This document shows positions 2,816 through 51,584 of a stretch of DNA of 64,000 nucleotides, piece after piece; positions within the stretch are counted from its first letter, which is position 1; the number at the start of each line of letters is the position of its first letter. The stretch comes from an uncultured Rickettsiales bacterium. GTDB taxonomy: Bacteria > Pseudomonadota > Alphaproteobacteria > Rickettsiales > SXRF01. The notes below the pieces were generated by a model. The model was not told the DNA's origin. It searched no databases and saw nothing but the letters and a program-made list of their open reading frames with translations. Made by a program: the position numbers and the translations under genes. The stretch spans positions 6,928-70,927 of the forward strand of contig CAZHUC010000004.1 in the NCBI GenBank assembly GCA_964535825.1. Direction: 5' to 3'.

Positions 2816-3106
2816 GTGGTGTTTATGAAGTCCAAACAAATACATGAACGCGCAGACATGGCAAGAAAAGTGCTGGCTCTTAACCTGCCTGGCATTGCCG
2901 AAGACACATATGCTAACCGTATGGGGGCTGGGCTTCCCATCACAAGCGCAGTTCAGCAGGCACTCACTGAGAATGGTATCAGTGTAGATATGCTACGCAA
3001 AGCTGGCTTTGTCAGATACGGCACGAACCAGCTTGATTATGCTGCCCTTAATCGGGCGATACAGGATCAATTCCGTGATTCATCCACACGAGGTCCTTCA
3101 TTTTAA
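2816..3106 (+). CDS. Small hypothetical protein
   Basis: 96-aa ORF in an otherwise empty gap. It is convergent with bioA and overlaps it by 9 nt. No recognisable motif. The start is uncertain (GTG 2816 or ATG 2825). Confidence 0.35.
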   Translation: MVFMKSKQIHERADMARKVLALNLPGIAEDTYANRMGAGLPITSAVQQALTENGISVDMLRKAGFVRYGTNQLDYAALNRAIQDQFRDSSTRGPSF

Positions 3107-4348: not shown

Positions 4349-4366
4349 GGAGATTGCCTGAAGTGG

Positions 4367-5353
4367 TTATGCCGCGCACGCCTTGGATTCTTGCAACGCC
4401 ATCGGTTTAATGCCCAGCTTTTCGAAGAGCGCCATGTCTTTATCGGCTTCCGGGTTTGCTGTGGTCAGCAGTTTTTCACCGTAGAAAATGGAATTCGCAC
4501 CGGCAAAGAAGCACAAAGCCTGCGTTTGCTCATTCATATTCTCACGTCCTGCCGACAGACGCACGAACGACTGTGGCATCATGATGCGTGCCACCGCAAT
4601 GGTGCGGATGAATTCGAACACATCGAGCTCTTCCTTCCCACTCATGGGCGTGCCTTCCACCTGTACCAGCAGGTTGATAGGTACGCTTTCCGGATGTTTT
4701 GGCATATTGGCAAGCGTGCGCAGCAGTTCTGCACGGTCGTGCTGTTTCTCACCCATGCCGACGATGCCGCCACAGCAAACGTTCATGCCAACATTCCGGA
4801 CATTCTCGAGCGTATCCAGACGGTCCTGATAGGTGCGGGTGGTGATGATCTCTTTGTAATACGCCTCGGAGGTGTCGAGGTTATGGTTGTAGTAATCTAG
4901 GCCGGCTGACTTCAGTTGCTTGGCGTGGTCGGGGGTGAGCATACCCAGAGTGGCACAGGTTTCCATGCCCAGCGACTTCACACCTTCAATGATATCTGAG
5001 AGTTTTTCAATGTCCCGGTCCTTAGGGGAGCGCCATGCAGCCCCCATGCAGAAACGTGATGCGCCGGCATCCTTGGCCTTTTGAGCTTCAGCCAGAATCG
5101 CCTCTTTATCCATGAGCTTACCGGCCTTTACATCGGTGTCGAACTTGGCGCTTTGCGGGCAATAGGCGCAGTCCTCAGGGCAGCCGCCGGTCTTGATGGA
5201 AAGCAGGGTGGATATCTGTACCCCATTCGCATCAAAGTGCTGGCGGTGCACGCTGGCCGCGCGGAACAGCAAATCGTTGAACGGTAACGAGAACAGGCCC
5301 AGTACTTCTTCTGGTTGCCAATCGTGACGGAGGGTTGTCTGCATAGTAAACAC
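4367..5353 (-). CDS. bioB: Biotin synthase (radical SAM)
   Basis: 328 aa with [11 protein letters not shown] (CxxxCxxC) and the YNHNLDTS motif. Confidence 0.95.
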
Positions 5354-5397
5354 CTATTATAGTGACTTTCCCTAAGGTTTAACGGATTCTACGGAAA

Positions 5398-6525
5398 ATG
5401 CCAGCATTAGACGCACATGTAGAGCAAAGATTGAAATTACTCGAAGCCAAGCACCTGCTGCGCGAGCCTAAAGGCACGTCCCGCAAAGAGGGTGTGCAGG
5501 TTGTGCGTGGGGATAAAACGCTTATCTCCTTTAGTTGTAATGATTATCTGGGACTCAGCCATCACCCCGATGTGATAAAGGCTGCACAGGAAGCGGTCGT
5601 AACATATGGCGCAGGGGCAGGGGCATCGCGGTTGGTGACGGGGAACTATCCTCTTTATGATGAGCTGGAAAGTGCCTTGGCCGAATATAAAGATACGCAG
5701 TCGGCCTGTGTATTCGGCAGTGGATATCTGGCGAATCTTGGTGTTATCCCGGCATTGGTCGGGGTGGGGGATCTCATACTTGCCGATAAATTCTCGCATG
5801 CCTGTATGCTGGATGCCGCCAGGGTGTCTGGCGCAACACTGATGCGATTCGCCCATAATAATATCGAACATATGAAGATGTTGCTCGCTGCTAACCGCAC
5901 AGAGCATCACAACTGCCTGATATTTACCGAGACCATCTTCAGCATGGATGGTGACGCTGCCCCTCTGGCAGAAATGTACCAGCTTGCCAAAGAATATGAT
6001 GCATGGCTAATGACCGATGATGCACATGGCCTTGGCATCGTGCCACCTCAGAAAGTGCATATACAGATGGGTACATTATCCAAAACCGCGGGTAGCTATG
6101 GGGGGTATGTGTGTGGTTCAAAAGCGCTGGTGGATTATATCAAAACATCGGCGCGCAGCCTGATCTATTCCACAGGCTTGCCGCCTGCATCTGTTGCGGC
6201 ATCAATTGCAGCATTAAAATTGATTCAGGTAAATAAATCACTCGGCGAGAAAGCACTCGCCAATGCCCGCTATTTTACATCATTGCTTGGCTTGCCAGAG
6301 GCACAAAGTGCCATTGTACCTGTGATAGTAAAAGAAAATGAAAAAGCGCTGGAGCTCTCAGCATTGCTGGAGGCAGCAGGATTTTTAGTATCTGCTATTC
6401 GCCCGCCAACCGTACCTGAGCATACAGCACGGTTGCGCTTTACTTTCTCGGCGTTGCATGAAAAGAAGCAAATTGAAGCAGTGGCAGATATTCTGAAAGT
6501 AGAAGGTGTTCCATGCGAATCCTGA
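5398..6525 (+). CDS. bioF: 8-amino-7-oxononanoate synthase
   Basis: 375 aa, alpha-oxoamine synthase family (SNDYLGLS, GTLSKTAGSYGG PLP-Lys context). Divergent from bioB. Confidence 0.9.
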   Translation: MPALDAHVEQRLKLLEAKHLLREPKGTSRKEGVQVVRGDKTLISFSCNDYLGLSHHPDVIKAAQEAVVTYGAGAGASRLVTGNYPLYDELESALAEYKDTQSACVFGSGYLANLGVIPALVGVGDLILADKFSHACMLDAARVSGATLMRFAHNNIEHMKMLLAANRTEHHNCLIFTETIFSMDGDAAPLAEMYQLAKEYDAWLMTDDAHGLGIVPPQKVHIQMGTLSKTAGSYGGYVCGSKALVDYIKTSARSLIYSTGLPPASVAASIAALKLIQVNKSLGEKALANARYFTSLLGLPEAQSAIVPVIVKENEKALELSALLEAAGFLVSAIRPPTVPEHTARLRFTFSALHEKKQIEAVADILKVEGVPCES

Positions 6526-7202
6526 CACTTTCCGGCTGGGGGCAGCCATATGATGCGCTGGCAGAAGCTTTCCCCGATGCCACGCATCTTAAATATTCGC
6601 ACTTGCCATCGATGCAACAGGCATTGGAATTAATTGCAGATACTAATACTGGCAAGGGGTATGATGCTATCGTGGGGTGGTCGCTGGGTGGAAGGCTTGC
6701 GGTGCAGGCGATACTTGCGGGGATTGTGAAGCCGCAGAAGATCGCGCTTATTGCCTCTGCGTTCCAGTTCTCCAGATCAACCGATCTGCCTTTAGGTATA
6801 CCGCGTGACCAATATGAGAAATTCCGTGGCAATTACCAACGCAATGCGCTGCGTACTCTGGATAAGGGGTGGGAGTTAATAATAAAAGGTGATAAACACG
6901 CCGACCGTATCCGTGCTCGCTTCAGTGAAACAGCTAAACAGGATATGTTGAAGTATGACTGGCTGCGCTGGCTTGATGAATTGAATGGGCTGACACTGCA
7001 CGGCAGATCTCTCGAAAATATGCCTCCCACACTATTGTTGCATGGGGTGCAAGATGTGGTGGTTGCGCCTGACCAATCACAGCATTACAAGAAGTTGTTG
7101 CCGCAATCGCAGTTGGTGATGTTAGATGATTGTGGCCATGCGCCACATTGGCATGATCCGGTGTTGGTAAGAGAGAGTGTGGAGAAGTTTATCCGTGTTT
7201 GA
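6513..7202 (+). CDS. bioH: Pimeloyl-ACP methyl ester carboxylesterase (alpha/beta hydrolase)
   Basis: 229 aa with the GWSLGG nucleophile elbow, as in BioH, and a C-terminal DCGHAPH. Located between bioF and bioC and overlaps bioF by 13 nt. Confidence 0.75.
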   Translation: MRILTLSGWGQPYDALAEAFPDATHLKYSHLPSMQQALELIADTNTGKGYDAIVGWSLGGRLAVQAILAGIVKPQKIALIASAFQFSRSTDLPLGIPRDQYEKFRGNYQRNALRTLDKGWELIIKGDKHADRIRARFSETAKQDMLKYDWLRWLDELNGLTLHGRSLENMPPTLLLHGVQDVVVAPDQSQHYKKLLPQSQLVMLDDCGHAPHWHDPVLVRESVEKFIRV

Positions 7203-7971
7203 TAATTCAGCGATAAAAGGTGCATTCGGGCGCTCGGCAGCGCAGTATGATGAGCATGCGCAATTGCAGCGTATGGTACGCCAGCATGCAGCCTCTATCG
7301 CCCTGCAGTATTGGCCGAAATCTGGCCTGATATTGGATGCAGGTTGCGGCACAGGCATGCTCGCAGCAGAACTTAAAGTACAAAGGCCTGCCTTATCCGT
7401 GATAGGTTTTGATATTGCGGCAGGCATGTGTGCGCATTCGCGTGCGACGCTGCAGCGCTGCGTGAATGCAGATGCATGCCATATACCTTTTGCTCCCAAT
7501 AGTTTTGATGGTGTGTTCTCATCGCTGATGCTGCAATGGGTCAGTGATACAAAGGCAGCATTCGCAGAGCTGTATCAACTTTTAAAACCCGGCACAGTAG
7601 CCGTTATCACCACACTTGCTGATGGTACGTTGCATGAACTGAAATCTGCATTCGCTGCTGTGGATAGCTATCCACATGTCAGCGATTTCCATGTGCCGCA
7701 CACGCTGATCGAATGTGCAGAAACCGCTGGTTTTTCGCTGGCAGTTGCCAAGCAGGATAAAATAGTGGAATACTACCCTGATACGATCGCATTGATGCGT
7801 GCATTACAGGTCATCGGCGCATCGAATAAGCACACAAAGCGGAACAAAGGTCTTATGACGGCAGCACAATTCACACGACTGGAAAAGAACTACAGGCATT
7901 TCGCACATCCAGAAGGTTTGCCAGCCTCATGGCAGATACTGACGCTTGTGCTGAAGAAAGAAGGTGTATGA
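7177..7971 (+). CDS. bioC: Malonyl-ACP O-methyltransferase
   Basis: Class I SAM methyltransferase motif I (ILDAGCGTGML) plus FSSLMLQW. Biotin-cluster context. The start may be the in-frame GTG at 7195. Confidence 0.8.
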   Translation: MWRSLSVFDNSAIKGAFGRSAAQYDEHAQLQRMVRQHAASIALQYWPKSGLILDAGCGTGMLAAELKVQRPALSVIGFDIAAGMCAHSRATLQRCVNADACHIPFAPNSFDGVFSSLMLQWVSDTKAAFAELYQLLKPGTVAVITTLADGTLHELKSAFAAVDSYPHVSDFHVPHTLIECAETAGFSLAVAKQDKIVEYYPDTIALMRALQVIGASNKHTKRNKGLMTAAQFTRLEKNYRHFAHPEGLPASWQILTLVLKKEGV

Positions 7972-8672
7972 ACCATTATTTTATCACAGCATCGGGCACG
8001 GATGTAGGTAAGACACTGGTAACCACATCACTTTGCTGGCAGCTACGCCAGCAGGGAAAAAAAGTAACTGCACTCAAGCCAGTTGCCACCGGGTTTAGTG
8101 CAGTAGACGAGCAAAGTGATTCTGCCCTTATTCTAAAAAGTTGCGGGCTGTCGCCCACGCCGTCAATGATAGAAACCATTACCCCATGGCGGTATGCTGC
8201 TTATCTTACGCCCAGTATGGCAGCACCACAGGAGCGTGATCAGGTGGATTTCAACAAACTGGTCAATTTCTGTAAAGACCACATGAATCTTGAGTCCGAT
8301 GTTGTACTGGTTGAAGGCGTAGGTGGAATCATGGCGCCGCTGACTGAAAATAAAACGGTATTGGATTGGATGAAGCAGTTGCGCTGGCCTACGATACTAG
8401 TGGGGGGTACATATTTAGGTTCGATCAGTCATACACTTTCATCCTATGAAGTGCTAAAAGCACATGGAGTTCCTGTGCGGGCGATCATTCTTTCTGAATC
8501 TGAAAAAAGTACCGTACCTTTGAATGATACCGTGGCGGCATTAGAGGAATTTGTGAACCCGGACCTGCCGATAGTAAAGATACCAAGGCAGCAAGGCAGC
8601 GGCGAATTATGGCAACATATACCACTTATCAGCTGGCTGGTAAGTGAAAGCAAGAATGCCGGGGTGGCATAA
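7968..8672 (+). CDS. bioD: Dethiobiotin synthase
   Basis: MNHYFITASGTDVGKT P-loop N-terminus. The ATG at 7968 overlaps the bioC stop (ATGA). The longer ORF start at 7929 is unlikely. Confidence 0.88.
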   Translation: MNHYFITASGTDVGKTLVTTSLCWQLRQQGKKVTALKPVATGFSAVDEQSDSALILKSCGLSPTPSMIETITPWRYAAYLTPSMAAPQERDQVDFNKLVNFCKDHMNLESDVVLVEGVGGIMAPLTENKTVLDWMKQLRWPTILVGGTYLGSISHTLSSYEVLKAHGVPVRAIILSESEKSTVPLNDTVAALEEFVNPDLPIVKIPRQQGSGELWQHIPLISWLVSESKNAGVA

Positions 8673-9265
8673 TGTTCGGTATGGCAGGGCTGGGCTTCCG
8701 CAAGCCTACAGATGAAGAAAAGCAATATGGTAATTTTAATCGTCGTATGTTCGCAGCCACGTTGGATTTTGCGTTGATAGGTCTTTTCATTGCGCCGCTT
8801 CTCGACAAATTATTCGTGATGTATTACGGAATTACTCCTTTTGACTGGCCAGCTACGCAGGCGCAGATATCAGCGGCCCAGACCGAGGCTGAGAAAGTTC
8901 GTATATTCAGGGAACAACTGATAGAATCTGGGGCATTGGATCGGTGGATGCAGAATGCCACTATGCAGTTCTCCGTATTACTTGCCCTGATAGGCATCTG
9001 CTGGCACTTCTGGGCGGCTACGCCCGGTAAGATGATCATGCGTATGAAAATCGTCGATGCTAAAACCAGGAAGCCTATCTCGGATATTCAGATTTTACTC
9101 AGGTTGAGCGGCTATGTGATGTCGGCTATGTTCTTCCTGCTTGGATTCTTCTGGATCGGTATCGATAAGAAAAAGCAAGGCTGGCACGACAAGCTGGCCG
9201 ACACCGTGGTCATTGCGTTGCCATGGAAAAAAATTAAATCAGACTCGAAAGCTGCTGGTCAGTAA
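8672..9265 (+). CDS. RDD family membrane protein
   Basis: 197 aa with TM segments and the C-terminal KQGWHDKLADTVVI signature of RDD proteins. TAATG overlap with bioD. Confidence 0.7.
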   Translation: MFGMAGLGFRKPTDEEKQYGNFNRRMFAATLDFALIGLFIAPLLDKLFVMYYGITPFDWPATQAQISAAQTEAEKVRIFREQLIESGALDRWMQNATMQFSVLLALIGICWHFWAATPGKMIMRMKIVDAKTRKPISDIQILLRLSGYVMSAMFFLLGFFWIGIDKKKQGWHDKLADTVVIALPWKKIKSDSKAAGQ

Positions 9266-40542: not shown

Positions 40543-40617
40543 GGCTCGGTAGCTCAGTGGTAGAGCAGGGGAATCATAATCCCTTGGTCGGGGGTTCAAA
40601 TCCCTCCCGAGCCACCA
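40543..40617 (+). tRNA. tRNA-Met (anticodon CAU), elongator type. A lysidine-modified tRNA-Ile2 cannot be excluded.
   Basis: 75-nt cloverleaf. Acceptor GGCTCGG/CCGAGCC, D-arm GCTC/GAGC, anticodon stem GGGGA/TCCCT with loop AUCAUAA, T-arm GGGGG-TTCAAAT-CCCTC, and an encoded CCA. The G1-C72 pair argues against an initiator. Confidence 0.9.
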
Positions 40618-40710: not shown

Positions 40711-41841
40711 ATGCAGGGTATTGTTCCGGTTCTCAAGCCAAAACTACCTGAAATTTCAGCTATTTTACCGTATCTTAAGCAGATCGATGAGAATCGCTGG
40801 TATGGTAATAATGGCCCGCTGGTCGTCGCTTTTGAGAAGCGAGTCGCTGATCTGCTGAAAGCAACGGCCGAAAGCGTCCTGATGGTGGCCAACGGCACGC
40901 TGGGCCTCACCGTAGCGCTACAGGCACTGGAAGTAAAACGTGGCGGCCTGTGTATCATGCCATCATGGACATTTACCGCAACACCCGCAGCGGCACTGGC
41001 CGCCGGGCTTGAGCCTTGCTTCATTGATGTGGACAAAGAAACGCAAGTCATCTCCGCAGAGAGCGTAAAAAAACATATCAAAGCGCTGAAGAAGCCAGTG
41101 AGTGCTGTGATGCCTGTATCTGCCTTTGGCGCGCCAATCGATGTTGCGCAGTGGGATAGATTCACAGAAGAAACCGGTATTCCTGTAGTGATCGACGCCG
41201 CAGCTGCGTTTGATAGCTTCATGAGCGGTGCAATGAAAATGGGTCGCACACCGGTGATGCTGAGTCTGCATGCTACGAAGATCTGCGGTATCGGCGAAGG
41301 CGGGCTGATGCTCACCAAGAGTGCTGACGTTGCATTCCGCCTGCGCCGCATCATCAATTTCGGGTTTGAGAATGACCGTCTGTCACATCGCATCGCCATT
41401 AATGCTAAGCCGAGTGAGTATAATGCGGCAGTAGCTATGGCCGTGCTGGATGAGTGGAAAGATATTCGCGCCGCCTGGGCAAAGGTGCAGTTGCGCTACA
41501 GAGAAAAGCTTGAAGCACACGGTATCGCCTGCTGGGTAAAACCTGATTGGGTAACGAGCACCAGTAACATAATTGTGCCTGAGCAAGCCGTGGCGCTGGC
41601 GCAACATCTGAAAGAGCAGGGCATTGACACACGTCGCTGGTGGGAAACAGGTTGTCATGTGCATCCGGCCTATCGCTCCTGCATGGTGCATGATGAATTA
41701 CCTAACACGCAGTGGCTCGGGCAATCGGTGCTTGGCATTCCTTCTGCCATGGACCTGAGTGAAGATACCCAGGATAGGGTATATGAGGCAGTGGTAAGCG
41801 GGCTTAAATCAATTAAGTCAGATTCCAGAAAATATGGCTAA
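40711..41841 (+). CDS. DegT/DnrJ/EryC1/StrS family sugar aminotransferase
   Basis: 376 aa with ANGTLGLTVAL and the PLP-lysine context LSLHATKICGIGEGG. Confidence 0.88.
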   Translation: MQGIVPVLKPKLPEISAILPYLKQIDENRWYGNNGPLVVAFEKRVADLLKATAESVLMVANGTLGLTVALQALEVKRGGLCIMPSWTFTATPAAALAAGLEPCFIDVDKETQVISAESVKKHIKALKKPVSAVMPVSAFGAPIDVAQWDRFTEETGIPVVIDAAAAFDSFMSGAMKMGRTPVMLSLHATKICGIGEGGLMLTKSADVAFRLRRIINFGFENDRLSHRIAINAKPSEYNAAVAMAVLDEWKDIRAAWAKVQLRYREKLEAHGIACWVKPDWVTSTSNIIVPEQAVALAQHLKEQGIDTRRWWETGCHVHPAYRSCMVHDELPNTQWLGQSVLGIPSAMDLSEDTQDRVYEAVVSGLKSIKSDSRKYG

Positions 41842-44056
41842 TCCATCTACATCTCCTGCCAATGTCGATCGTAATGATCCATGTCCATGCGGCAGTGGTA
41901 AGAAATTTAAAAAGTGCTGCATCGATAAGGTGGCTGCAGCATCCACCGCGCCATCACTGAATATCGGCCTTACCCTGCAACAAGCGGCAGCTGCACTCAA
42001 TACCGGGCGCTTGGATATTGCAGAAATTGCGCTTGCCAATGTGCTGCACGTACAACCTAATAATACGGATGCATTGAATTTTGCTGCGTATGTCTGTTTC
42101 CAACGCAAGCAATATGATACCGCGGCCGGGTATATCAACAAAGCAATAAGCCTGAATAACAAGAACGGATTATATTTCTTCACCGCCGCATTGATCTCCA
42201 AGGCATGCAAGCGGTTTGATGAAATGGAAGTGCTATTGCTCAAAGCGCTTGCGCTTAAGCCAGCGGGCTATATTTCACAGATATACGCTAATCTTGGCGA
42301 CTGCATGCATGAAAAACGTAACATGCCTGCGGCAATCAGTTATTACACAAAGGCGATCGAGGCGGATGCAAAGAACGCTAAAGCCTATTTCTATCGTGGT
42401 ATGGCGCGTTATGAATTTGAGGGAGCAAACTCAACCTATGAAATTGATGCCAATAAAGGCATCGAGCTTTCACAAAAGTCATCGGATATGCTGTGCAAAT
42501 TAGCAACGATCTATAACAGTGAGCAGGATTTCGAGAAAGCACATCTGCTGTTGCAAGATGCGGTATCCGTTAGTCCGGATAATGAAGAGGCGTCATTCTT
42601 CCATGCGCTGACCTTTTATGAGCGTGGGGATGTTGAAACTGCAAAAAATATCTTTGCAAAAGTATTGACCAGACACCCGCTGAGTATTCGCACACAGGTG
42701 AGTGATGCTTTCCTGCTGCCGGTCATCGTTCATGATAATAATGAGATAGAATCATGGCGTACGCGTTTGATGTCGCGGGTGCAACAGCTGATCGATAATA
42801 AGGTCATTTTGCATGAACCTGAGCGTCAGGGACTGTATCTGCCCTTTTATCAAGGGTATCATGGGCGTGATAATAAGGTGATGATGCAGAAATTGTCGGA
42901 ATTCTTCCTGATATGCTGTCCATCGGTGCAATACACCGCACCACATTGCACCAAACCGCGAGATAAAAGTAAAAAGATACGTATTGGGTTCGTTTCTGAA
43001 TATTTCCATTCAAAACTGCTTACACAATTCTTTGGTCCGCTCATAGAGGGATTGGCAGCGGATGCTGAATGCGAAGTGGTGATATTTGCTTCCTCAGCGC
43101 GTGAGAATGACAAGGTAAAAACCTTATCAGATCAGGTTAAGAAATATGTGGTGCTGCCACTTAGCCTGCCATCCATGCAGCAGACTATTGCGCATGAGGA
43201 GATAGATATCTTGATCTATCTGGATATTGGTATGCGCCTGAATACCTATTTATTGGCACTGGCGCGGCTTGCACCGGTACAGGCGGTGATGGGTGGACAC
43301 CCACTCACCACCGGTATCCCGAACATGGATTATTTCTTCACTACAGGTAGCATGGAGGCGGAAGGCTCGCACACGCATTACACAGAAAAGCTGCTGGCTG
43401 GTGCAGATTTGCTTGCAGTGATCAAGAAGGAATATGTTGCACCGGTTGATATGACGCGCGCAGAGCTTGGGTTACCAACAGAGGATGTGCGCTTATATAC
43501 CTGTCCAGTGCTGCTATTCAAACTGCATCCGGATATGGATATGGTGTTCGAGGGTATACTCAATAAAGATCCCAAGGCGCGCATTATCTTGTTCGATAAT
43601 GGCAAGATCATCTGGCGTGAGTTGCTGGAGAAGCGTTTTGTGGATTCTATGGGCAAAGAACTTGCATCGCGCATCATATTTGTTCCATTTGCGGCAAAAG
43701 ATAAGTTCATGCATACGATGCGCGCCATGGATGCGATATTTGATACATTGCATTTCTCCTTCGGTACAACGGCATTCCTGTTGCTTGGCTCAGAAGTGCC
43801 ATTCGTGACCAAACCCGGGGAATTTTTGCGTGGCCGTGGTGCTTACGGGGTATTCAAAATGATGGGTATGCTCCATATGTCAGCAGATACCATAGATGGG
43901 TATGTTGATCTTATTGTTAAACTGGCAAATGACAAGGCGTTCTATAAGCAGGCGCAGGATGATATCCGCAAACAAAACCATCTCATCTTTGATGATTATG
44001 GGCCTGTCGATGAATTCCGTACGCATCTGAAACGTATCGCCTCCGAGATCGCATGA
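41834..44056 (+). CDS. SEC-C motif + TPR repeats + GT41 (SPINDLY/OGT-like) glycosyltransferase
   Basis: 740 aa. N-terminal NDPCPCGSGKKFKKCC (SecA-type zinc motif), about 300 aa of TPR-like repeats, and a C-terminal half with RIGFVSEYFHSKLL and LFKLHPDMDMVFEGILNKDPKARIILF, typical of bacterial GT41. Overlaps the degT-like gene by 8 nt. Confidence 0.75.
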   Translation: MANPSTSPANVDRNDPCPCGSGKKFKKCCIDKVAAASTAPSLNIGLTLQQAAAALNTGRLDIAEIALANVLHVQPNNTDALNFAAYVCFQRKQYDTAAGYINKAISLNNKNGLYFFTAALISKACKRFDEMEVLLLKALALKPAGYISQIYANLGDCMHEKRNMPAAISYYTKAIEADAKNAKAYFYRGMARYEFEGANSTYEIDANKGIELSQKSSDMLCKLATIYNSEQDFEKAHLLLQDAVSVSPDNEEASFFHALTFYERGDVETAKNIFAKVLTRHPLSIRTQVSDAFLLPVIVHDNNEIESWRTRLMSRVQQLIDNKVILHEPERQGLYLPFYQGYHGRDNKVMMQKLSEFFLICCPSVQYTAPHCTKPRDKSKKIRIGFVSEYFHSKLLTQFFGPLIEGLAADAECEVVIFASSARENDKVKTLSDQVKKYVVLPLSLPSMQQTIAHEEIDILIYLDIGMRLNTYLLALARLAPVQAVMGGHPLTTGIPNMDYFFTTGSMEAEGSHTHYTEKLLAGADLLAVIKKEYVAPVDMTRAELGLPTEDVRLYTCPVLLFKLHPDMDMVFEGILNKDPKARIILFDNGKIIWRELLEKRFVDSMGKELASRIIFVPFAAKDKFMHTMRAMDAIFDTLHFSFGTTAFLLLGSEVPFVTKPGEFLRGRGAYGVFKMMGMLHMSADTIDGYVDLIVKLANDKAFYKQAQDDIRKQNHLIFDDYGPVDEFRTHLKRIASEIA

Positions 44057-44946
44057 CGAGCCACCCGTACGCCACTGAGACGTTTGCGAATTCGCTTTCG
44101 CATTGGGGGCAGGCATGGCGAGTGGATGCCTGGAATTGTTATGTTATTAAGCGGCCAATTGCTGACGAGGCATTTGATGCTGCTGGTGTATATCCGATCA
44201 CACCTTTAGAGCCAAACATAGATATTACCGCAGGACTTTCCCAGCTGCGGGATGCTGGCTTTGTTTCGATTGTGTTAGTGTTTGATGATTTTCACAGGCC
44301 AGATCTTGTGGAATTAAAAAAGCATTTTGATGCCGTGAATGATTTTAAACCACATTATGTATATCGCCCCGATAAGGGTAAGCTCGATTATGACAGTCAC
44401 CACCGTCGTGCTGTAAAGACTGCATATAAACATGTGCGGACCGATATTATTGCGCTCAGTGACGGCCTTGATGAATGGGCACGGCTTTATGATGCACTAA
44501 CAGCAACGCTCAAATTAGAAGGTCTGCATGCGTTCCCGCATGAACATCATCAAGCCATTGCCAGTATGGAGGGTGTGATCGCTGTTGGCGCATGGCTAGA
44601 TAAAGAACTGGTTTCCTGCCATGTATGGGTGGATGATGGACAATATATGCACAGTCATCTCGTGGCCTCTAATGAGAAGGGTTATGAGTTCAGGGCTGCA
44701 TACGCAGTGAATGATACCTCCATACAGTATTTTGCTAATAGAAAACTGCTGAATTTCGGCGGCGGGGCAGGGAATATAGTGGGCAGTGACGATGGCCTTG
44801 CGCGCTTTAAGAAAGGTTTCTCAAATGATGTTGCAGGTTCGTATATCTGCGGTGTCATTCTGGACAAGGATAAATACCAGCAGTTGGTGGATGCAAGAGC
44901 TCTGTCTCAGCCAACAAACTTCTTCCCTGCTTATAGAGCACCGTAA
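44053..44946 (+). CDS. FemAB-like / GNAT (Acetyltransf_6-type) acyl- or aminoacyl-transferase
   Basis: 297 aa. C-terminal NFGGGAGNIVGSDDGLARFKKGFSN resembles FemAB-family/BioF2-like GNAT proteins. ATGA overlap with the GT41 gene. Confidence 0.55.
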   Translation: MTSHPYATETFANSLSHWGQAWRVDAWNCYVIKRPIADEAFDAAGVYPITPLEPNIDITAGLSQLRDAGFVSIVLVFDDFHRPDLVELKKHFDAVNDFKPHYVYRPDKGKLDYDSHHRRAVKTAYKHVRTDIIALSDGLDEWARLYDALTATLKLEGLHAFPHEHHQAIASMEGVIAVGAWLDKELVSCHVWVDDGQYMHSHLVASNEKGYEFRAAYAVNDTSIQYFANRKLLNFGGGAGNIVGSDDGLARFKKGFSNDVAGSYICGVILDKDKYQQLVDARALSQPTNFFPAYRAP

Positions 44947-44951
44947 GTCTG

Positions 44952-45875
44952 TTATTTCCAGACTGCGTAGCCAAAGCCCTTTGCGCCAAAATCATTCCCA
45001 TTATAGAACATATATCTCCCACCGGGGGTATCTATGATATTGGGATATGCCACCATTTGTGAATCCCATCCTTCCGAGCTCACTGGAATGCCAGCCTTAC
45101 TGTCATCGCGACGCCATTTCTTGCCATCGGTTGATGATGCATAGCCGATACGGTAACTGCCAGTGCCGCCACGGAAATCGTGGCTGCCGCGATAGCTGAA
45201 CCACATATAATATGTTCCATCTTCGAAGAATACGCTGGGGCGTGTGGTGGCTTCACCTTCTGCAGCACCCGGTATACAGCAGATATTCGGGCGTTGCCAA
45301 TCCAGCCCATTATCGGAGTGGGCATAATAGATATAATAAAGTGGCTCATATTTTTCGCCGGTCTTTACCCAATCGACACCCGATCCATACCACATTTCCC
45401 ATTTATCGCCACGCTTCACAATAGAAGGCGACATGGAGGAAAAAGGTTCACCGCGGGTGATAGAAAGCACAGGCCCTGCATAGGGACGCTCAAATGTTTT
45501 GCCGCCATCCTGACTAATGGCAAGGCCTACCGCGTTCAGATATGGCACGGTCTGGCCGCGCTGCCAGCCGGTTGTGTATAACCATACTTCGTTGCCCACA
45601 TGCAGCACGGCTGCCGGCATGATACCGAACTCATCAAATGTACCGGGTTTGCCCAGATCGAGTATCGGATTCTTATGCACATACAGGACTTTTCTGGGGT
45701 CATGAATATCGACATCCACAAATGTGACAAGGCTGGTCTGTTGTTCAGGCCGTACTGTGATATATACACGGATACGATCCTCCATCAGCAAGGCAGTCGG
45801 CACTTGCGCATATGCTTTCATCCACGGGGATTCCAGTGAAGGCCCGTAAATAAACCCGCGTTTTTCCCATGCCAT
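44952..45875 (-). CDS. Hypothetical protein, predicted beta-propeller (GH32/43/130-like fold)
   Basis: 307 aa with repeated W/Y/G-rich strand motifs (WLYTTGW, WEMWYGSG, YYMWFSY, YMFYNGND). The fold assignment is tentative. Confidence 0.45.
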   Translation of the reverse strand: MAWEKRGFIYGPSLESPWMKAYAQVPTALLMEDRIRVYITVRPEQQTSLVTFVDVDIHDPRKVLYVHKNPILDLGKPGTFDEFGIMPAAVLHVGNEVWLYTTGWQRGQTVPYLNAVGLAISQDGGKTFERPYAGPVLSITRGEPFSSMSPSIVKRGDKWEMWYGSGVDWVKTGEKYEPLYYIYYAHSDNGLDWQRPNICCIPGAAEGEATTRPSVFFEDGTYYMWFSYRGSHDFRGGTGSYRIGYASSTDGKKWRRDDSKAGIPVSSEGWDSQMVAYPNIIDTPGGRYMFYNGNDFGAKGFGYAVWK

Positions 45876-45927
45876 ATTTTTTCCTTAAACTGTCGACTTT
45901 GTGTGCAGATTATTTTATAAACCTAAT

Positions 45928-46728
45928 ATGGGAGCTGTAAAGAACACTTCTCAGGGAGACCTAAATCTCCTACTCCCCGAATATGATCTGCCAACCTATG
46001 GAGGCGAGCGGTGCGAATATTTTGTGTGTTCCACGCCGCGTACCGGTAGCTCATTACTGGGGGACTTATTTTTTCGTACTGGGGTGTTAGGCGTACCGTA
46101 CGAGTACCTGAATCCTGTGCATATAAACACCCTGGTAGACCGTTTTGGCCTGAAGAGAAACTCGGCTGGTGCTGTTGATGCAGATGTTTATTTAGAGCGC
46201 TTGAAATCATGCCGTACCGGCAAGAACGGTGTATTGGGTATCAAAAGCCATTTCAATCATGCAGCGCCATTCTTTCGTAGCAGGAAATTCTTGTCGTGGT
46301 TTCTCACTTTGAAACATATCTATATTACGCGTCAGGATCTGCTGGGGCAGGCCATATCATATTCACGCGCTTTGCAAAGTGATGCATGGTCGATCAATTC
46401 TCAGATCAAAAAAGAACCTGTTTATGATTTTAACAATATCATGCAGTGCCTTGATGGCATCATCAGTGAGAACAGTAACTGGCATAAGAATTTTGCAGCC
46501 TTTGGCCTGAAGCCTTTATACATCACCTATGAAGAGCTTGTTCGTGATCCTGTGGAGGCCAGTCAGCGTATCTCCAAGTTCCTGAAGCCTGATGGTAGCC
46601 TTAACTTTACACTGGATCTGGATAATTCCAGCCTGCGCAAACAAAGCGGCGGCCAGAGTAAAGAGTGGAGAGAGCGTTTTGTATCTGACGTCTACAAAAT
46701 GAAGGGCTTATCGGGAGACAGTAAGTAA
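45928..46728 (+). CDS. Stf0-type sulfotransferase
   Basis: YFVCSTPRTGSSLLGDLFFRTGVLGVPYEYLNP matches the PAPS-binding loop region of the Stf0 family. The start is ATG 45928 or GTG 45901. Confidence 0.7.
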   Translation: MGAVKNTSQGDLNLLLPEYDLPTYGGERCEYFVCSTPRTGSSLLGDLFFRTGVLGVPYEYLNPVHINTLVDRFGLKRNSAGAVDADVYLERLKSCRTGKNGVLGIKSHFNHAAPFFRSRKFLSWFLTLKHIYITRQDLLGQAISYSRALQSDAWSINSQIKKEPVYDFNNIMQCLDGIISENSNWHKNFAAFGLKPLYITYEELVRDPVEASQRISKFLKPDGSLNFTLDLDNSSLRKQSGGQSKEWRERFVSDVYKMKGLSGDSK

Positions 46729-47370
46729 TCACTTCTGGTATAGATAGATACCGGTGTGGTAGTTGTTGTGCCAGCCAGTTGTTTCCCCAACCTTCTTAAA
46801 ACCAGCTAATTCTACGTCGGATTCATACACAGGATTATTGTATACCAGATAGCAGGCTTTGCTCGCATTTGTTATGTGTGTGAGCATTTGTGTCAGTGTT
46901 TCAACTCCGAACGGGTCACAGATGTAGATGATAGAATGCTCTGCATAATTATTGAAAACGCGCGCGTTCTCCTTGATAATTTCTGCGCCGATACCAAGTT
47001 TTTGCAGGTTCTTGCTTGCAATGGCTGCAAGATTTTCATCCAGTTCAATGCCGACGATACCCTGGCAGGGTAAATACTTTGCAGCCATTATGAGAACTTT
47101 TCCCTTGCCGCAGCCAACATCATAAAATGTAAATTTATCCGTCTGCGCGATCGATCTCAGTAAGTTGAAGCATTTGATGATCTCTTGCGTAAATGAAGCC
47201 TGGTAATGCTTCATATCCGAATCGGTTTCAGTATATTCAGAGAGCGGACGCCATGTTTCAGTATCAACGCCGTTGAGTATATCGAACAGCGTTGTTTCCC
47301 GGAAATGTGTCCATACACGTTTGAAGCCATGTGCTTTGTAAAGATTTTTATAGCTACTCCAGCTAGTCAT
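46729..47370 (-). CDS. Class I SAM-dependent methyltransferase
   Basis: 213 aa with motif I FYDVGCGKGKVL and an acidic post-I residue (GIELDE). Last gene of the carrier-SDR-MTase operon (1-nt overlap). Confidence 0.7.
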   Translation of the reverse strand: MTSWSSYKNLYKAHGFKRVWTHFRETTLFDILNGVDTETWRPLSEYTETDSDMKHYQASFTQEIIKCFNLLRSIAQTDKFTFYDVGCGKGKVLIMAAKYLPCQGIVGIELDENLAAIASKNLQKLGIGAEIIKENARVFNNYAEHSIIYICDPFGVETLTQMLTHITNASKACYLVYNNPVYESDVELAGFKKVGETTGWHNNYHTGIYLYQK

Positions 47371-48122
47371 CAGACCCTCAATCCGCCATGCACTTCCAGC
47401 ACAGTACCATTTACATAATGATTATTAATGGCGAACATGCAGGCATCAATGATGCTGTCGGGATTGCCTAGCATCTTCATCGGGATGCGGCTGGTGATAT
47501 CTTTAAGCTGTGCTTCAGATACTGCGGCATGGGTGGAGGGGGTATCCATATAGCCTGGGGCAATAGCCACACTGCGGATACCAAAACCACCAAGTTCTTT
47601 TGCCCATACTTGTGTGAGGGCCTCGATGCCTGCCTTGCTGGCAGAATAAGCACTCTGGCCGGCATTGCCTTTAGCCGCTACCGAGCTGATATTGATGATC
47701 ACGCCCTGTTTGCGTGCTTTAGCCATTCTGCGTGCCACGAACTGCGATACATAGAAAGCAGAGGAAAGATTGGTGTTGATACAACGCATCCAGTCATCTG
47801 CGTTGCGCTCCAGAGATGAGTCATCCTTTTCCAGAATATTCACCAGTGGTGCGCTATGTAATATGCCGGCATTGTTGATAAGCACATCAACGGTCGGATG
47901 GTCGGCATATACTGATTCAAGGCAGCTATTCACTTTGCGGGCATCCGTAAGATCGCAGGTGACGCCGTGAAAGTTCTTTTGCGCCATGGCTTTTAGTTTG
48001 TCCGTATTCACATCAAGGCCAATGACCGATGCTGCGCCTTCTTCAAGCATGGCTTGTACCAGCCTTTTGCCTAATTCACCGGCTGCACCTGTAATGAGTA
48101 TGGTCTTTCCTTGGACGGTCAT
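47370..48122 (-). CDS. Short-chain dehydrogenase/reductase (FabG-like)
   Basis: 250 aa with ILITGAAGELG, NNAG and YSASKAG. ATGA overlap with the carrier-protein gene. Confidence 0.85.
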   Translation of the reverse strand: MTVQGKTILITGAAGELGKRLVQAMLEEGAASVIGLDVNTDKLKAMAQKNFHGVTCDLTDARKVNSCLESVYADHPTVDVLINNAGILHSAPLVNILEKDDSSLERNADDWMRCINTNLSSAFYVSQFVARRMAKARKQGVIINISSVAAKGNAGQSAYSASKAGIEALTQVWAKELGGFGIRSVAIAPGYMDTPSTHAAVSEAQLKDITSRIPMKMLGNPDSIIDACMFAINNHYVNGTVLEVHGGLRV

Positions 48123-48343
48123 AGGCGATGCCTGTGTAAAATGGTTTCAATAGCTTTGACCGACACCATATCAGCGATCTCGTCGCCTGTCAGTTCGATA
48201 CCAAGCTCTTTCTCGATAGCCACGATGATCTCGATATGTTTAAGCGAGTCCCATTCCGGCGTGTTTTCCATAGAGGTGCTGGCGCTTACTGAGGCTTCAG
48301 GCAGCTTTAAGATGTCGGCGATCAATTTATGTATTGTATTCAT
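48119..48343 (-). CDS. Acyl/peptidyl carrier protein
   Basis: 74 aa. EWDSLKHIEIIVAIEKELGIEL carries the DSL phosphopantetheine-attachment serine. Confidence 0.8.
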   Translation of the reverse strand: MNTIHKLIADILKLPEASVSASTSMENTPEWDSLKHIEIIVAIEKELGIELTGDEIADMVSVKAIETILHRHRL

Positions 48344-48372
48344 ACGCTATTTATTCCAAATTTCAGGGCACT

Positions 48373-49893
48373 ATGGCAACAGCTATCTTTAATATGGGGC
48401 TGCGCTTTAAAGAAATAGCGCAGTTGCATCCTGATAATACCGCACTCCGTATGGAAAGCGGCGAAGCTGTTACCTATCGTGAATTAGATGTTCATAGCGA
48501 CCATGTGGCGGCGTTGCTGGTGTCAAAAAAACTTGGAAGCGCGCGCCCATTGGCCATCTTTGCCGATAAATCGGTATGGGCATATGCTTCCATGCTCGGT
48601 GCGCTGAAGGCCGGTGTGCCATATGTGGTGCTTGATATGGAAAGTCCTGCCGAGCGGCTGGATAAGATACTGGATAGGTGCAAGCCCGGGCTGATCATCA
48701 GTGCAGCCGATGATTTTACATGGAAAGATGCGGAGATATACAATTTCAGCCAGCTTGATGGCCTAAAGGATGCACTGCCTGTTGAACATATCGCACAGGT
48801 TGCACCTGCTACACCGGCTTACCTGATGTTCACCTCCGGCTCTACCGGTTTTCCCAAGGGCGTTACCATCTCGCATGCCAGCATGCTCAATTTCTGCCAT
48901 TGGGCACGAGATACATTCTCCATTACCCCGCAGGACAGATTGTCGGGCGTGAATCCGCTTTATTTTGATAATTCTGTATTTGATTTTACGGCATCACTCT
49001 TCAACGGCGCGTGCCTGATGCCCATTGGCCGCAGCACACTGAAGCAGGCCAAGAAGCTGGTCGAGCAGCTTAGCGATTGCACCCTATGGTTCTCTGTGCC
49101 TTCCATGCTTATTTACCTGATGACGATGAAAGCACTCACCAAAGAAAGCTGGCCTGCCATGCGCGCCATTGTTTTCGGCGGGGAAGGCTATGCCAAGACC
49201 GAGCTCATGAAGCTCCACAAGATGTTTGGTAAGCAGGCAACGCTCTGGAATGTGTATGGGCCAACTGAATGTACCTGCATCTGTTCTGCTTATGCCGTGT
49301 CTGAAAAAGATTTTGCAGATATGGACATGCTCGCCCCGCTTGGCTTCCTTGCCAAGGAGTTCGATGGGTTGGTACTAAATGAAGGAGGAAAGCCGGTCAA
49401 GGATGGTGAGATAGGCGAGTTGCTGCTGTGTGGCTCGCAGGTGGCGATCGGGTATTATAATGATGAGGAGCGTACCAAGGCATCATTCCTGGTGAATCCT
49501 GTCACTCCTGCTTCTGGCCAGATGTGTTACCGCACGGGGGATCTCGTGCTGCGTGACCCACAAACCGGTTACCTGCATTTCAAAGGTCGCAAGGATAACC
49601 AGATCAAGCATATGGGTTATCGCATTGAGCTGGAGGAGATCGAGGCGGCATTGGCCGGGTTTTCCGAGTTGTCGCAAGGAGCAGTGGTGTATCACAGGAA
49701 GAGCGCTACGGCCGGGCGTATCATGGCGTTCGTGACGCTGGCGCATGACGTGGCAGCACAAGACATAAAAAACCGTTTGCGCAGTAAGCTGCCGTCTTAC
49801 ATGATACCGGATGAAGTGATCATTATGGATGCATTGCCTAAGAACGCGAATGGTAAAGTAGACCGTAAGGCGTTGCTGGCAGGATTGGAATAA
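48373..49893 (+). CDS. Stand-alone NRPS-type (DltA-like) amino-acid adenylation enzyme
   Basis: Core motifs are LMFTSGSTGFPKGV (A3), FDNSVFD (A4, with the Asp that binds an alpha-amino group), NVYGPTECT (A5), YRTGDL (A7), GRKDNQIKHMGYRIELEEIE (A8), LPSYMIP (A9) and NGKVDRKAL (A10). The start is ATG 48373 or 48334. Confidence 0.85.
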   Translation: MATAIFNMGLRFKEIAQLHPDNTALRMESGEAVTYRELDVHSDHVAALLVSKKLGSARPLAIFADKSVWAYASMLGALKAGVPYVVLDMESPAERLDKILDRCKPGLIISAADDFTWKDAEIYNFSQLDGLKDALPVEHIAQVAPATPAYLMFTSGSTGFPKGVTISHASMLNFCHWARDTFSITPQDRLSGVNPLYFDNSVFDFTASLFNGACLMPIGRSTLKQAKKLVEQLSDCTLWFSVPSMLIYLMTMKALTKESWPAMRAIVFGGEGYAKTELMKLHKMFGKQATLWNVYGPTECTCICSAYAVSEKDFADMDMLAPLGFLAKEFDGLVLNEGGKPVKDGEIGELLLCGSQVAIGYYNDEERTKASFLVNPVTPASGQMCYRTGDLVLRDPQTGYLHFKGRKDNQIKHMGYRIELEEIEAALAGFSELSQGAVVYHRKSATAGRIMAFVTLAHDVAAQDIKNRLRSKLPSYMIPDEVIIMDALPKNANGKVDRKALLAGLE

Positions 49894-49894
49894 T

Positions 49895-50569
49895 ATGAAG
49901 AAACTGGTGATATTCGGCATTGGCAAGATCGGGCAGGTGGTGATGCACCATTTTGCTACCGACAGCGATTATACCATCGCAGGGTTTGCGGTGGATAAGC
50001 AATACATACCACAAGGCGGTATGTTCGAGGGGCTTCCGGTCGTTGCATTCGATGAAGTAGAAAAACATTTTCCTCCACAGGCGCATGATATGTTCGTGGC
50101 GGTGGGATATCAGCAGTTGAATGGCCTGCGCGCAGCACGTTGCGCCGCAGCTCGCAAAAAAGGCTACATACTTCCTAATTACATCAGCTCTGCGAACCGG
50201 CATATCAAAAGCCCGATGGGGGATAATAATTTCATTATGTCCGGTGAGCCTCTGCAGCCGCGCACCAAGATAGGCAGCGGTTGTTTTATCTGGACGAATG
50301 CCATCATCGGCCATCATTCACATGTGGGCGATTATTGCTGGATCACCTCTAATGTCACCATCGGTGGTAATTGTCGCATTGGTGATAATTGCTTCTTAGG
50401 GCTGGGTGCTACCATCGGTCATGAAATAAGCATTGGTGCGTGCTGTCTTATCGGCGCGGGTGCGCTCATCACAAAAGATGCCCCGGAGGGTGGTGTGTAT
50501 ATCGAAGCTGAGACACAACGCTTCCGCCTGAACAGTGAACAGTTCCTCAAAATGAATACGCTTAAATAG
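49895..50569 (+). CDS. NeuD/PglD-type left-handed beta-helix sugar N-acyltransferase
   Basis: 224 aa. N-terminal KLVIFGIGKIGQVV Rossmann-like domain followed by hexapeptide repeats (IGSGCFIW..IIGHHSHVGDYCWI..VTIGGNCRIGDNCFLG). Confidence 0.8.
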   Translation: MKKLVIFGIGKIGQVVMHHFATDSDYTIAGFAVDKQYIPQGGMFEGLPVVAFDEVEKHFPPQAHDMFVAVGYQQLNGLRAARCAAARKKGYILPNYISSANRHIKSPMGDNNFIMSGEPLQPRTKIGSGCFIWTNAIIGHHSHVGDYCWITSNVTIGGNCRIGDNCFLGLGATIGHEISIGACCLIGAGALITKDAPEGGVYIEAETQRFRLNSEQFLKMNTLK

Positions 50570-50576
50570 GTGATCC

Positions 50577-51584
50577 ATGAAAAAAGAATTAGCTGATATC
50601 TATCGCTGCCCGGCCACCGGTGAAAAAGTAAAACTTGAGGTCGGCAAGGAGCAGGGCGGGGAGGTGCTGGAAGGCACATTCACCGCTGGCAGCAATCGTT
50701 ATCCCATAAAGTCTGGTGTGCCTGATTTTACCTATCCGTTCATGCTGGAGCAGAGCGATGCCGAAGCACGCCGTTACTACGACGAAAAGGCCGATGAGTA
50801 CGATGAATATCTGCCGCTTACGTTCGAAACGTTCAAGGTAGATGAAACGGCAGTGCGCAACAGCATGATCGATGACCTGTGCCTGAGGCCAGATTCAAAG
50901 GTGCTGGAAATTGGTGCTGGCAGCGGTCGTGATTCAGAGCTGATACTCAAGCGGCTGGGTAAAGACGGCCAGCTTTTCATGCAGGATATATCATCGGGTA
51001 TCTTTGATAAGGCGGTGCAAAAACTAAAAGCTGCAACGCCTGCTCCGGCATTCTTCATTTCCAATGGCAGTTACCTGCCGTTCCCCGATAAGTATTTTGA
51101 TGCCACCTATCATTTTGGTGGGCTCAACACCTTCGCGGATATTGCGCGTGCTTTCAAGGAAGCGGTACGTGTCACCAAGGTGGGTGGCAAGATCGTGATG
51201 GGTGATGAAAGCATGCCTCTCTGGCTGCGTGAGACCGAGTTCGGCAAGGTGCTCATGAACTCCAACCCTCATTACAAATTTCAGCTGCCGCTTGAGCATA
51301 TGCCGGTGGAAGCACGCAATACGCGCTTGCGCTGGATCATCGGGGAAGTGTTCTATGTGATCGATTTTGAAGTGGGTGAGGGCACACCATATGCCGATCT
51401 GGATTTTGAGATACCAGGCCCACGCGGCGGTACACACCGCACCCGCTATTATGGCCACATGGAAGGTGTTACACCGGAAGTGAAGCGACTTGCTACCAAG
51501 GCCGCAAAGTCATCAGGCAAAAGCCTGCATGAGTGGCTGTGTGATGCCGTGAATACGGCGGCCAAAAGAGATCTTGGGCAATAA
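50577..51584 (+). CDS. Trm112-like N-terminal domain + class I SAM methyltransferase + C-terminal ribbon-helix-helix-like tail
   Basis: 335 aa. YRCPATGEKVKLE...YPIKSGVPDF (Trm112-like), VLEIGAGSGRD (motif I), and the C-terminal PEVKRLATKAAKSSGKSLHEWLCDAVNTAAKR, which resembles CopG/Arc-type RHH. Confidence 0.7.
   Translation: MKKELADIYRCPATGEKVKLEVGKEQGGEVLEGTFTAGSNRYPIKSGVPDFTYPFMLEQSDAEARRYYDEKADEYDEYLPLTFETFKVDETAVRNSMIDDLCLRPDSKVLEIGAGSGRDSELILKRLGKDGQLFMQDISSGIFDKAVQKLKAATPAPAFFISNGSYLPFPDKYFDATYHFGGLNTFADIARAFKEAVRVTKVGGKIVMGDESMPLWLRETEFGKVLMNSNPHYKFQLPLEHMPVEARNTRLRWIIGEVFYVIDFEVGEGTPYADLDFEIPGPRGGTHRTRYYGHMEGVTPEVKRLATKAAKSSGKSLHEWLCDAVNTAAKRDLGQ

Follow-up and report, generated by a model that had tools for sequence, protein, structure and literature searches.

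The window analysed here is a stretch of 64,000 nt of contig CAZHUC010000004.1 (assembly GCA_964535825.1), and its positions are used as coordinates throughout. It carries an open reading frame (ORF) of 2223 nt on its forward strand (41834-44056), coding for a protein of 740 aa (P0001), in which a short metal-binding motif of the SecA type (SEC-C) is followed by a linker, a superhelix of tetratricopeptide repeats (TPRs) and a catalytic region of glycosyltransferase family 41 (GT41), the OGT/SPINDLY family. The features of this gene are given below, with the evidence for each of them in brackets.

41834..44056, + strand: whole gene, SEC-C / linker / TPR / GT41 protein of 740 aa (ORF list, translation, Pfam, AlphaFold2 model)
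41870..41920, + strand: SecA-type metal-binding motif RNDPCPCGSGKKFKKCC, residues 13-29 (PF02810, identity to the YchJ C-terminus and SecA, codon selection)
41921..41962, + strand: linker IDKVAAASTAPSLN, residues 30-43, rich in Ala, Ser, Thr and Pro (low predicted local distance difference test score, pLDDT)
41963..42709, + strand: TPR superhelix, residues 44-292, 17 helices or ~8.5 repeats (TPR Pfam families, helix list of the AlphaFold2 model)
42731..44053, + strand: GT41 catalytic region of GT-B type, residues ~300-740 (PF13844, phmmer, Foldseek, alignment columns)

Domain architecture and catalytic region

The tripartite order of SEC-C, TPR and GT41, which an earlier note had read from the sequence alone, is borne out, all three parts scoring above their Pfam cut-offs. 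PF02810 (SEC-C) was found on residues 13-29 with 39.5 bits against a cut-off of 20.4, one residue away from the position of about 14-30 given in that note, while several TPR families exceed their cut-offs over residues 48-290 and PF13844 (Glyco_transf_41) reaches 65.4 bits against a cut-off of 25 (E 4e-18). The translation of the ORF also agrees with the 740-aa soluble protein described there: the protein is predicted to be soluble, as no transmembrane segment was found along its 740 residues, the highest 19-residue Kyte-Doolittle mean being 1.4. Membrane anchoring, which would call for a hydrophobic segment, was ruled out on the same grounds.

The AlphaFold2 (AF2) model, for which 52 homologues served as input, has a mean pLDDT of 93.2 and a predicted template modelling score (pTM) of 0.88, and consists of the TPR superhelix followed by a two-lobed GT-B domain, i.e. 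the GT41 layout. Confidence is above 90 from residue 44 on, with a mean pLDDT of 58 for linker residues 31-40 and of ~75 for the SEC-C knuckle. As modelled, the knuckle resembles a tethered knob, like the tail of SecA but placed at the other terminus. The earlier proposal that the motif tethers the enzyme fits the 14-residue, low-confidence linker between the knuckle and the TPRs.

As for the catalytic region, a single-query phmmer search matched P0001 to human OGT (hOGT) with an E-value of 1.7e-29, and further matches were obtained with Thermobaculum OGT, SPINDLY (SPY), XcOGT and HMW1C/NGT. With Foldseek, the best matches of the AF2 model in the Protein Data Bank (PDB) were SPINDLY, OGT, XcOGT and TtOGT, with a probability of 1.00 and E-values down to 3e-29. 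Lys563 aligns with the catalytic Lys842 of hOGT, and Thr645/Thr646 with its phosphate-binding Thr-Thr pair (Thr921/922); across the alignment of the family, Lys563 and Thr646 hardly vary. That the C-terminal domain might match neither GT41 nor any GT-B fold, which was the way in which the earlier assignment could have failed, is ruled out both by profile (PF13844, phmmer) and by fold (AF2, Foldseek).

Human OGT, Arabidopsis SPINDLY, Xanthomonas XcOGT and Thermobaculum OGT have the same fold and the same order, from TPR to N-Cat to C-Cat, and the solved GT41 structures (OGT, SPY, XcOGT and TtOGT) share the equivalents of Lys842 and Thr921/922 with the 740-aa protein, at 17-21% identity. The latter differs from them in having no intervening domain, in its N-terminal metal knuckle and in the Lys found at the column of hOGT His498, and its donor is probably not UDP-GlcNAc. 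Two residues before this Lys394, His392 is kept in 7 of the 8 closest sequences, the 740-aa protein included. Over residues 383-394 (window 42980-43015), the clade has FHSK where canonical GT41 proteins have FRxH. In the alignment, the motifs CPxxLFKxHPDxD and HFSxGTT take the place of FNxxxKxxP and PYNxHTT, and the 740-aa protein can be assigned from its sequence to a distinct GT41 sub-branch.

The SecA-type head: likeness, selection and distribution

The motif RNDPCPCGSGKKFKKCC is identical at 17/17 positions to the C-terminal metal-binding domain (MBD) of YchJ (9l6b_C), and at 15/16 positions to the E. coli SecA peptide (1sx0). Its CXCX8C[CH] pattern is complete (Cys17, Cys19, Cys28 and Cys29), and it includes the conserved Ser21 and Phe25, a Ser and an aromatic residue at these places being described as conserved among SecA-type MBDs (10.1101/613315). 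Together, the profile, the fold and the full identity to YchJ support the earlier reading of a probably protein-directed TPR-GT41 enzyme with a genuine SecA-type motif.

Both the start ATG and the motif, which lies 8-20 residues after the start, are kept in seven orthologues of 42-71% identity. Over the 17 motif codons, seven synonymous and no non-synonymous differences were counted against orthologous locus L007, and seven synonymous and one non-synonymous against L009. Given the conserved start and motif, and codon differences that are all or nearly all synonymous, the motif is translated and under purifying selection. A start downstream of it, the second way in which the earlier reading could have failed, is ruled out by the same orthologues, which place the motif inside the true ORF.

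In the 1.92-Mb genome, SEC-C motifs are found only twice, on SecA and on the 740-aa protein. SecA itself has the tail RNEPCPCGSGKKFKHCH, of the CH form, and the 740-aa protein has the CC form; SecB is also encoded. The MBDs of SecA, YecA(AscA) and YchJ have in common the CXCX8C[CH] motif with its Ser and aromatic residue and, as in the SecA tail, the knuckle of the 740-aa protein sits on a flexible linker, here a predicted one. However, the MBD of SecA and YchJ is C-terminal whereas the present motif occupies residues 13-29 of 740, so that the linker comes after the knuckle and not before it, and the knuckle is joined to a transferase instead of a translocation ATPase or a chaperone. Among SecA clusters, P0095-P0101 and P0113 (~955 aa, from Kordiimonadaceae-type metagenome-assembled genomes, MAGs) have two tandem SEC-C motifs, at residues ~902 and ~941.

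The distribution of the design was analysed in word-indexed homologues, in 1.84 billion representatives (searched exhaustively with HMMER) and in GTDB species genomes. Among the word-indexed homologues, PF02810 and PF13844 were combined in more than 20 clusters, including Rhodocyclaceae MAGs and Ferriphaselus amnicola, with the motif always in the first 30 residues. The exhaustive search gave a family of 3432 clusters at E <= 1e-30, and an N-terminal SEC-C head was present in 23 of the best 150 of them, clustered at 50% identity. In GTDB species genomes, it was found at 10 of the 80 top-ranking loci, and the hosts of these ten are Alpha-, Beta- and Gammaproteobacteria. TPR-sulfotransferases and a TPR-DUF5672 protein likewise begin with this head; in a TPR-GT9 protein, the motif is internal (residue 288). 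The architecture, which the earlier note had called unusual and had proposed to check for rarity and phylogenetic restriction, therefore turned out to be widespread, in the three proteobacterial classes and beyond, and a unique architecture is ruled out by its recurrence in homologue clusters, GTDB loci and other transferases. At locus L034 (4016-8490), a SEC-C+TPR+DUF5672 protein is encoded directly upstream of a SEC-C+TPR+GT41 protein, followed by two TPR-GT41 genes and a GT2/GT4 fusion. In the library searched, no paper was found that joins the SEC-C motif with TPR glycosyltransferases or SEC-C with flagellin glycosylation. As a variant of the TPR-guided protein glycosyltransferases, the design recurs but is as yet undescribed.

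In a tree of 143 catalytic domains, 33 with the head and 110 without it, the presence of the head required 20 state changes, a number that miscalled starts and FastTree error may inflate, whereas shuffled labels required 29.9 on average and never fewer than 24. These figures indicate a head that is inherited within small clades, yet often gained or lost. A basic tail as a general substitute for the head in the SEC-C-less relatives was ruled out, only 6 of the 110 having one. These six (P0010, P0046, P0198, P0220, P0222 and P0260) have at least 8 Lys or Arg in their first 30 residues, and their Lys/Arg-rich tails may be another basic docking peptide.

Concerning what the head does, a role in docking would agree with its tether geometry, with the exact SecA/YchJ sequence that it retains and with its occurrence on several classes of enzyme. 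The ligands of SecA-type MBDs include Zn or Fe, SecB and ribosomes (10.1101/613315), and by analogy the head might plausibly dock on the ribosome or on SecB. The main alternative to docking is a redox or metal switch, in which occupancy by Zn or Fe, or oxidation of the Cys-Cys pair, would control the dimerisation or the activity of the transferase. The 17/17 identity to the YchJ motif speaks for such a switch, as Cys149 and Cys150 of YchJ are reported to form an intermolecular disulfide induced by reactive oxygen species, next to lysines that make up a basic cluster (PMC13377102); it is also favoured by the iron that SecA-type MBDs bind in vivo (10.1101/613315), by the CC and not CH ending of nearly all heads in the family, and by the TPR-mediated dimers as which OGT and SPY function (PDB entries). 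However, the locus is without redox or metal-homeostasis genes, and the head is dispensable, being absent from 110 of the 143 tree members, which an optional localisation device fits at least equally. On balance, a regulatory switch appears improbable.

The genomic island and its candidate donor sugar

The gene lies in an 11-gene island that begins beside a tRNA gene and comprises the following neighbours:

40543..40617, + strand: tRNA-Met, left edge of the island (ARAGORN)
40711..41841, + strand: sugar aminotransferase of the DegT/DnrJ/EryC1 family (PF01041, E 1.4e-61)
44053..44946, + strand: FemAB-like / GNAT-like protein of 297 aa (weak PF02388, weak FemX match)
44952..51584, mixed strands: rest of the island (Pfam, NCBIfam, same gene set in orthologous loci), with a GH130-like 307-aa ORF (-), a Stf0 sulfotransferase (+), a methyltransferase (-), a short-chain dehydrogenase/reductase (SDR; -), an AMP-binding enzyme (+), an N-acyltransferase of the NeuD/PglB/VioB family (+) and a methyltransferase (+)

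The glycosyltransferase gene overlaps both neighbours, as the earlier note had it: the DegT gene runs 8 bp into its start (41834-41841), and the FemAB-like gene shares 4 bp, ATGA, with its stop (44053-44056). Translational coupling to sugar-modifying genes is thereby supported. The best NCBIfam matches of the DegT protein are DesI, LegC and PseC, all below cut-off, and the N-acyltransferase reaches 166.9 bits with TIGR03570 (NeuD/PglB/VioB family; cut-off 160.8). In orthologous loci L007-L010, the DegT gene and a FemAB-like orthologue of 295 aa occupy the same positions. The synteny of the close orthologous loci, from nitrilase and agmatine deiminase through DegT, the glycosyltransferase and the 295-aa protein to the carrier-protein arm, is the same throughout, and these loci are therefore uninformative on the acceptor.

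The genes at 44952..51584 are presumed, from their family assignments, to be a set for tailoring the donor sugar; the 740-aa enzyme would be the transferase of this island. The GC content is 0.458 over the glycosyltransferase gene (42001-44000), as compared with ~0.50 in the surrounding sequence. Four genomes of the same family lack the locus, and in G053 it is a pseudogene with two in-frame stops. It looks like a variable accessory island.

Because of the acyl-, amino- and methyltransferase genes in the island, and of RmlB encoded elsewhere in the genome, a reasonable guess for the donor would be a tailored sugar of the viosamine type, a 4-amino-4,6-dideoxyhexose. Another possible source of the donor is a group of legionaminic acid genes, including a separate LegC, on contig C2 of the same genome (L118, G000:C2:102000-121000), adjoining a polyprenyl-phosphate glycosylphosphotransferase gene: LegB, LegC and NeuC exceed their cut-offs there, and the group also includes a NeuB-like synthase and a PseF-like cytidylyltransferase.

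These genes also bear on the nature of the acceptor. The tailored sugar might be transferred not to a protein at all but to a glycan or a lipid-linked intermediate (lipopolysaccharide, capsule), with the TPRs serving only to assemble enzymes, as could be suggested by an island of sugar-tailoring genes with no obvious acceptor, in a genome that has polyprenyl-phosphate glycan machinery besides the legionaminic acid pathway. OGT, SPY, HMW1C/NGT and Synechococcus Ogt, however, all act on proteins, as GT41 enzymes are generally known to do. Given also a soluble protein with a long TPR arm like that of OGT and SPY, and the link of its relatives to flagellin presented below, a non-protein acceptor is considered very improbable.

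Flagellin as a possible acceptor and the proposed role of the head

In four genomes that are not related to one another, genes coding for SEC-C-TPR-GT41 proteins have flagellin genes as neighbours. In Ferriphaselus amnicola, the gene is followed, 2 kb downstream, by two flagellin genes and by flaG-fliD-fliS-fliT. On a 731-kb metagenome contig (L035), it comes directly after flagellin-flaG-fliD-fliS-fliT-fliK, and is followed by more TPR-GT41 genes and a DegT gene. In a genome of the window's order (L028, G005:C233), three tandem paralogues (837-2870, 2895-4919 and 4965-7022) adjoin a flagellin gene of 519 aa (7208-8767, - strand), with another TPR-GT41 gene starting at 9114. The fourth case is a Rhodoferax MAG (L059), in which the gene is linked to flagellin. 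As for SEC-C-less homologues, they adjoin flagellin in two more genomes of the window's order (G040, where a TPR-sulfotransferase is also present, and G001), and a DegT-paired homologue of 37% identity in G014 is 6-13 kb from flgI, flgK, flgL and flagellin.

Within the order, flagellin is encoded in all 18 genomes with a homologue vs. 79 of the 121 overall, a count that ignores phylogeny. Of 11 genomes with a SEC-C-bearing copy, 10 encode flagellin. In its own genome, the 740-aa protein is the only GT41 member and no Maf-type flagellin glycosyltransferase is present, and the main flagellin, of 561 aa, contains 22% Ser+Thr. The flagellin frame is ~573 aa long in G000 (the window's own genome) and G122, where the locus is present, and ~1170 aa in the same-family genomes G018, G077 and G114 (genus g2), where it is absent. 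Adjoining the main flagellin gene of G000, on contig C2 (L001, 2109-3281, - strand), is a Cys-rich ORF of 390 aa (MSILLQANMLGKFTCLGDKCADTCCRAWSM...), which presumably resembles the flagellin lysine-N-methylase FliB.

The closest described counterpart by function would be FlmG of Caulobacter crescentus and Brevundimonas subvibrioides, in which the TPR domain binds flagellin and the GT-B domain sets the donor specificity (PMC7591256; 10.1101/2022.03.25.485807). Because the TPR domain of FlmG binds flagellin (PMC7591256), the TPR superhelix of the 740-aa protein is presumed to be its acceptor-binding arm. FlmG is likewise a soluble alphaproteobacterial protein, with N-terminal TPRs and a C-terminal GT-B domain, and is described as active in the cytoplasm ahead of flagellar export; the Caulobacter vibrioides control genome has a PF13844 match. 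By contrast, FlmG has 596 aa, uses CMP-pseudaminic or CMP-legionaminic acid as donor and has no SEC-C head in its descriptions, and the window gene is not beside flagellar genes.

GT41 genes also occur in enterobacterial flagellin glycosylation islands (PMC4875605). In islands of this kind, the gene of a GT41 or another glycosyltransferase is grouped with those of an aminotransferase, a VioB/NeuD-type acyltransferase, a carrier-protein arm and methyltransferases, which serve to make a modified amino-dideoxy sugar for flagellin, and a similar gene set is present here. Those islands lie between flagellar genes whereas the present one lies beside a tRNA gene, with flagellin on other contigs, and their GT41 proteins are mostly fused to methyltransferase domains and not to a SEC-C head.

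From its sequence, its model and these analogies, the 740-aa protein is proposed, with confidence that is evenly divided, to be a soluble cytoplasmic protein O-glycosyltransferase of the GT41 family, bearing a docking head and having flagellin as acceptor. Its TPR arm would bind the acceptor, most likely flagellin, in an unfolded or partly folded state in the cytoplasm, and its GT-B domain would transfer a nucleotide-activated modified amino sugar to it. The production of this sugar would probably involve the DegT aminotransferase, the methyl- and sulfotransferases and, together with its carrier-protein arm, the NeuD/VioB-type N-acyltransferase. The knuckle, on its flexible linker of ~14 residues, would be a portable head, found also on TPR-sulfotransferases. 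Its most likely function would be to park the enzyme on one of the acidic partners known for SecA-type MBDs, the ribosome or SecB, so that the enzyme would meet its substrate before folding or export. More generally, the substrates of the enzyme classes that bear the head are likely to be exported proteins.

Several points weigh against this proposal. At the catalytic level, the canonical His is missing from the His498 column, where the clade has Lys394, so that catalytic detail may differ from that of hOGT; at the donor level, the complete-looking legionaminic acid pathway on C2 is a possible alternative source. Concerning the acceptor, the own genome offers no positional link to flagellin, the gene being on C4 and the flagellin-family genes on C2, C7 and C11; the close orthologous loci have no flagellin link either, and the island encodes no obvious acceptor. 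Among the 80 GTDB loci, only 12 have flagellin within 10 kb, and the SEC-C-bearing loci are not more flagellin-adjacent than the SEC-C-less ones (1/10 vs. 11/70). Members of the family also occur in flagellin-less Nostoc and Oscillatoria (cyanobacteria), Tundrisphaera (Planctomycetota) and an actinobacterial MAG, so that the family has other acceptors. Finally, a Thermodesulfobacteriota MAG (L117, 10001-15618) provides a non-flagellar context for the same head, with a SEC-C-TPR-sulfotransferase gene between a divergent operon of the type II secretion system (T2SS; gspC-L) and the gene of a 1071-aa RCC1/TSP_3 protein. In view of the flagellin genes on other contigs, the few linked loci, the flagellin-less hosts and this T2SS-side sulfotransferase, flagellin is retained as the likeliest acceptor with no more than even confidence.

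The earlier note had coupled glycosylation to Sec export. The informative contexts of SEC-C-TPR-GT41 genes are clusters of flagellin or of fliD-fliS, and flagellin leaves the cell through the type III system of the flagellum and not through Sec, so that this coupling is left unsupported. A Sec-related variant would have the knuckle tether the enzyme to SecB, SecA or the membrane, and Sec-dependent proteins such as pilins, adhesins or T2SS cargo glycosylated just before their translocation. The motif does keep the full SecA/YchJ C-terminal sequence, including the residues that bind SecB (10.1101/613315), in a genome that encodes SecB and has its only other SEC-C motif on SecA. The sulfotransferase gene beside the T2SS operon points in the same direction, and keeps this reading alive for part of the wider family. 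The known substrates of GT41 enzymes moreover include an adhesin (modified by HMW1C, PMC3012730) and a pilin (modified by Synechococcus Ogt, 10.1101/2021.07.06.449578), and an orphan prepilin peptidase gene is found 4.5 kb upstream. On the other hand, neither the island nor the orthologous loci encode a candidate Sec substrate, the informative contexts are flagellar, with a substrate that bypasses Sec, and folded glycoproteins would be poor Sec substrates unless modified while unfolded. Sec-dependent acceptors are thus judged unlikely for the 740-aa protein, although less so than the switch considered above.

The proposed docking of a head-bearing, probable flagellin glycosyltransferase touches on a wider question, that of how cytoplasmic glycosyltransferases reach export-competent substrates such as flagellin and adhesins. 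A knuckle on a flexible tether suggests a testable answer, in which the enzyme is parked where the unfolded substrate emerges, and since the head is short (17 residues), portable and present on several enzyme classes, its deletion, exchange or transfer to other proteins should pose little difficulty in the established reconstitution systems of FlmG or E. coli. The known uses of SEC-C are extended beyond SecA, YecA and YchJ, and a distinct GT41 sub-branch is marked, for which unusual donors may be expected. It is a speculative and rather doubtful prospect that the head made of MBD, linker and TPRs may define a class of bacterial protein modifiers (GT41, GT9-like, sulfotransferases and DUF5672) that dock on the ribosome or SecB and act co-translationally or on unfolded secretory proteins. 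If this were true, their substrates would include flagellin that awaits export by the flagellar type III system, as well as T2SS or other cargo not yet exported by Sec, and the class would be a bacterial counterpart of co-translational O-GlcNAcylation.

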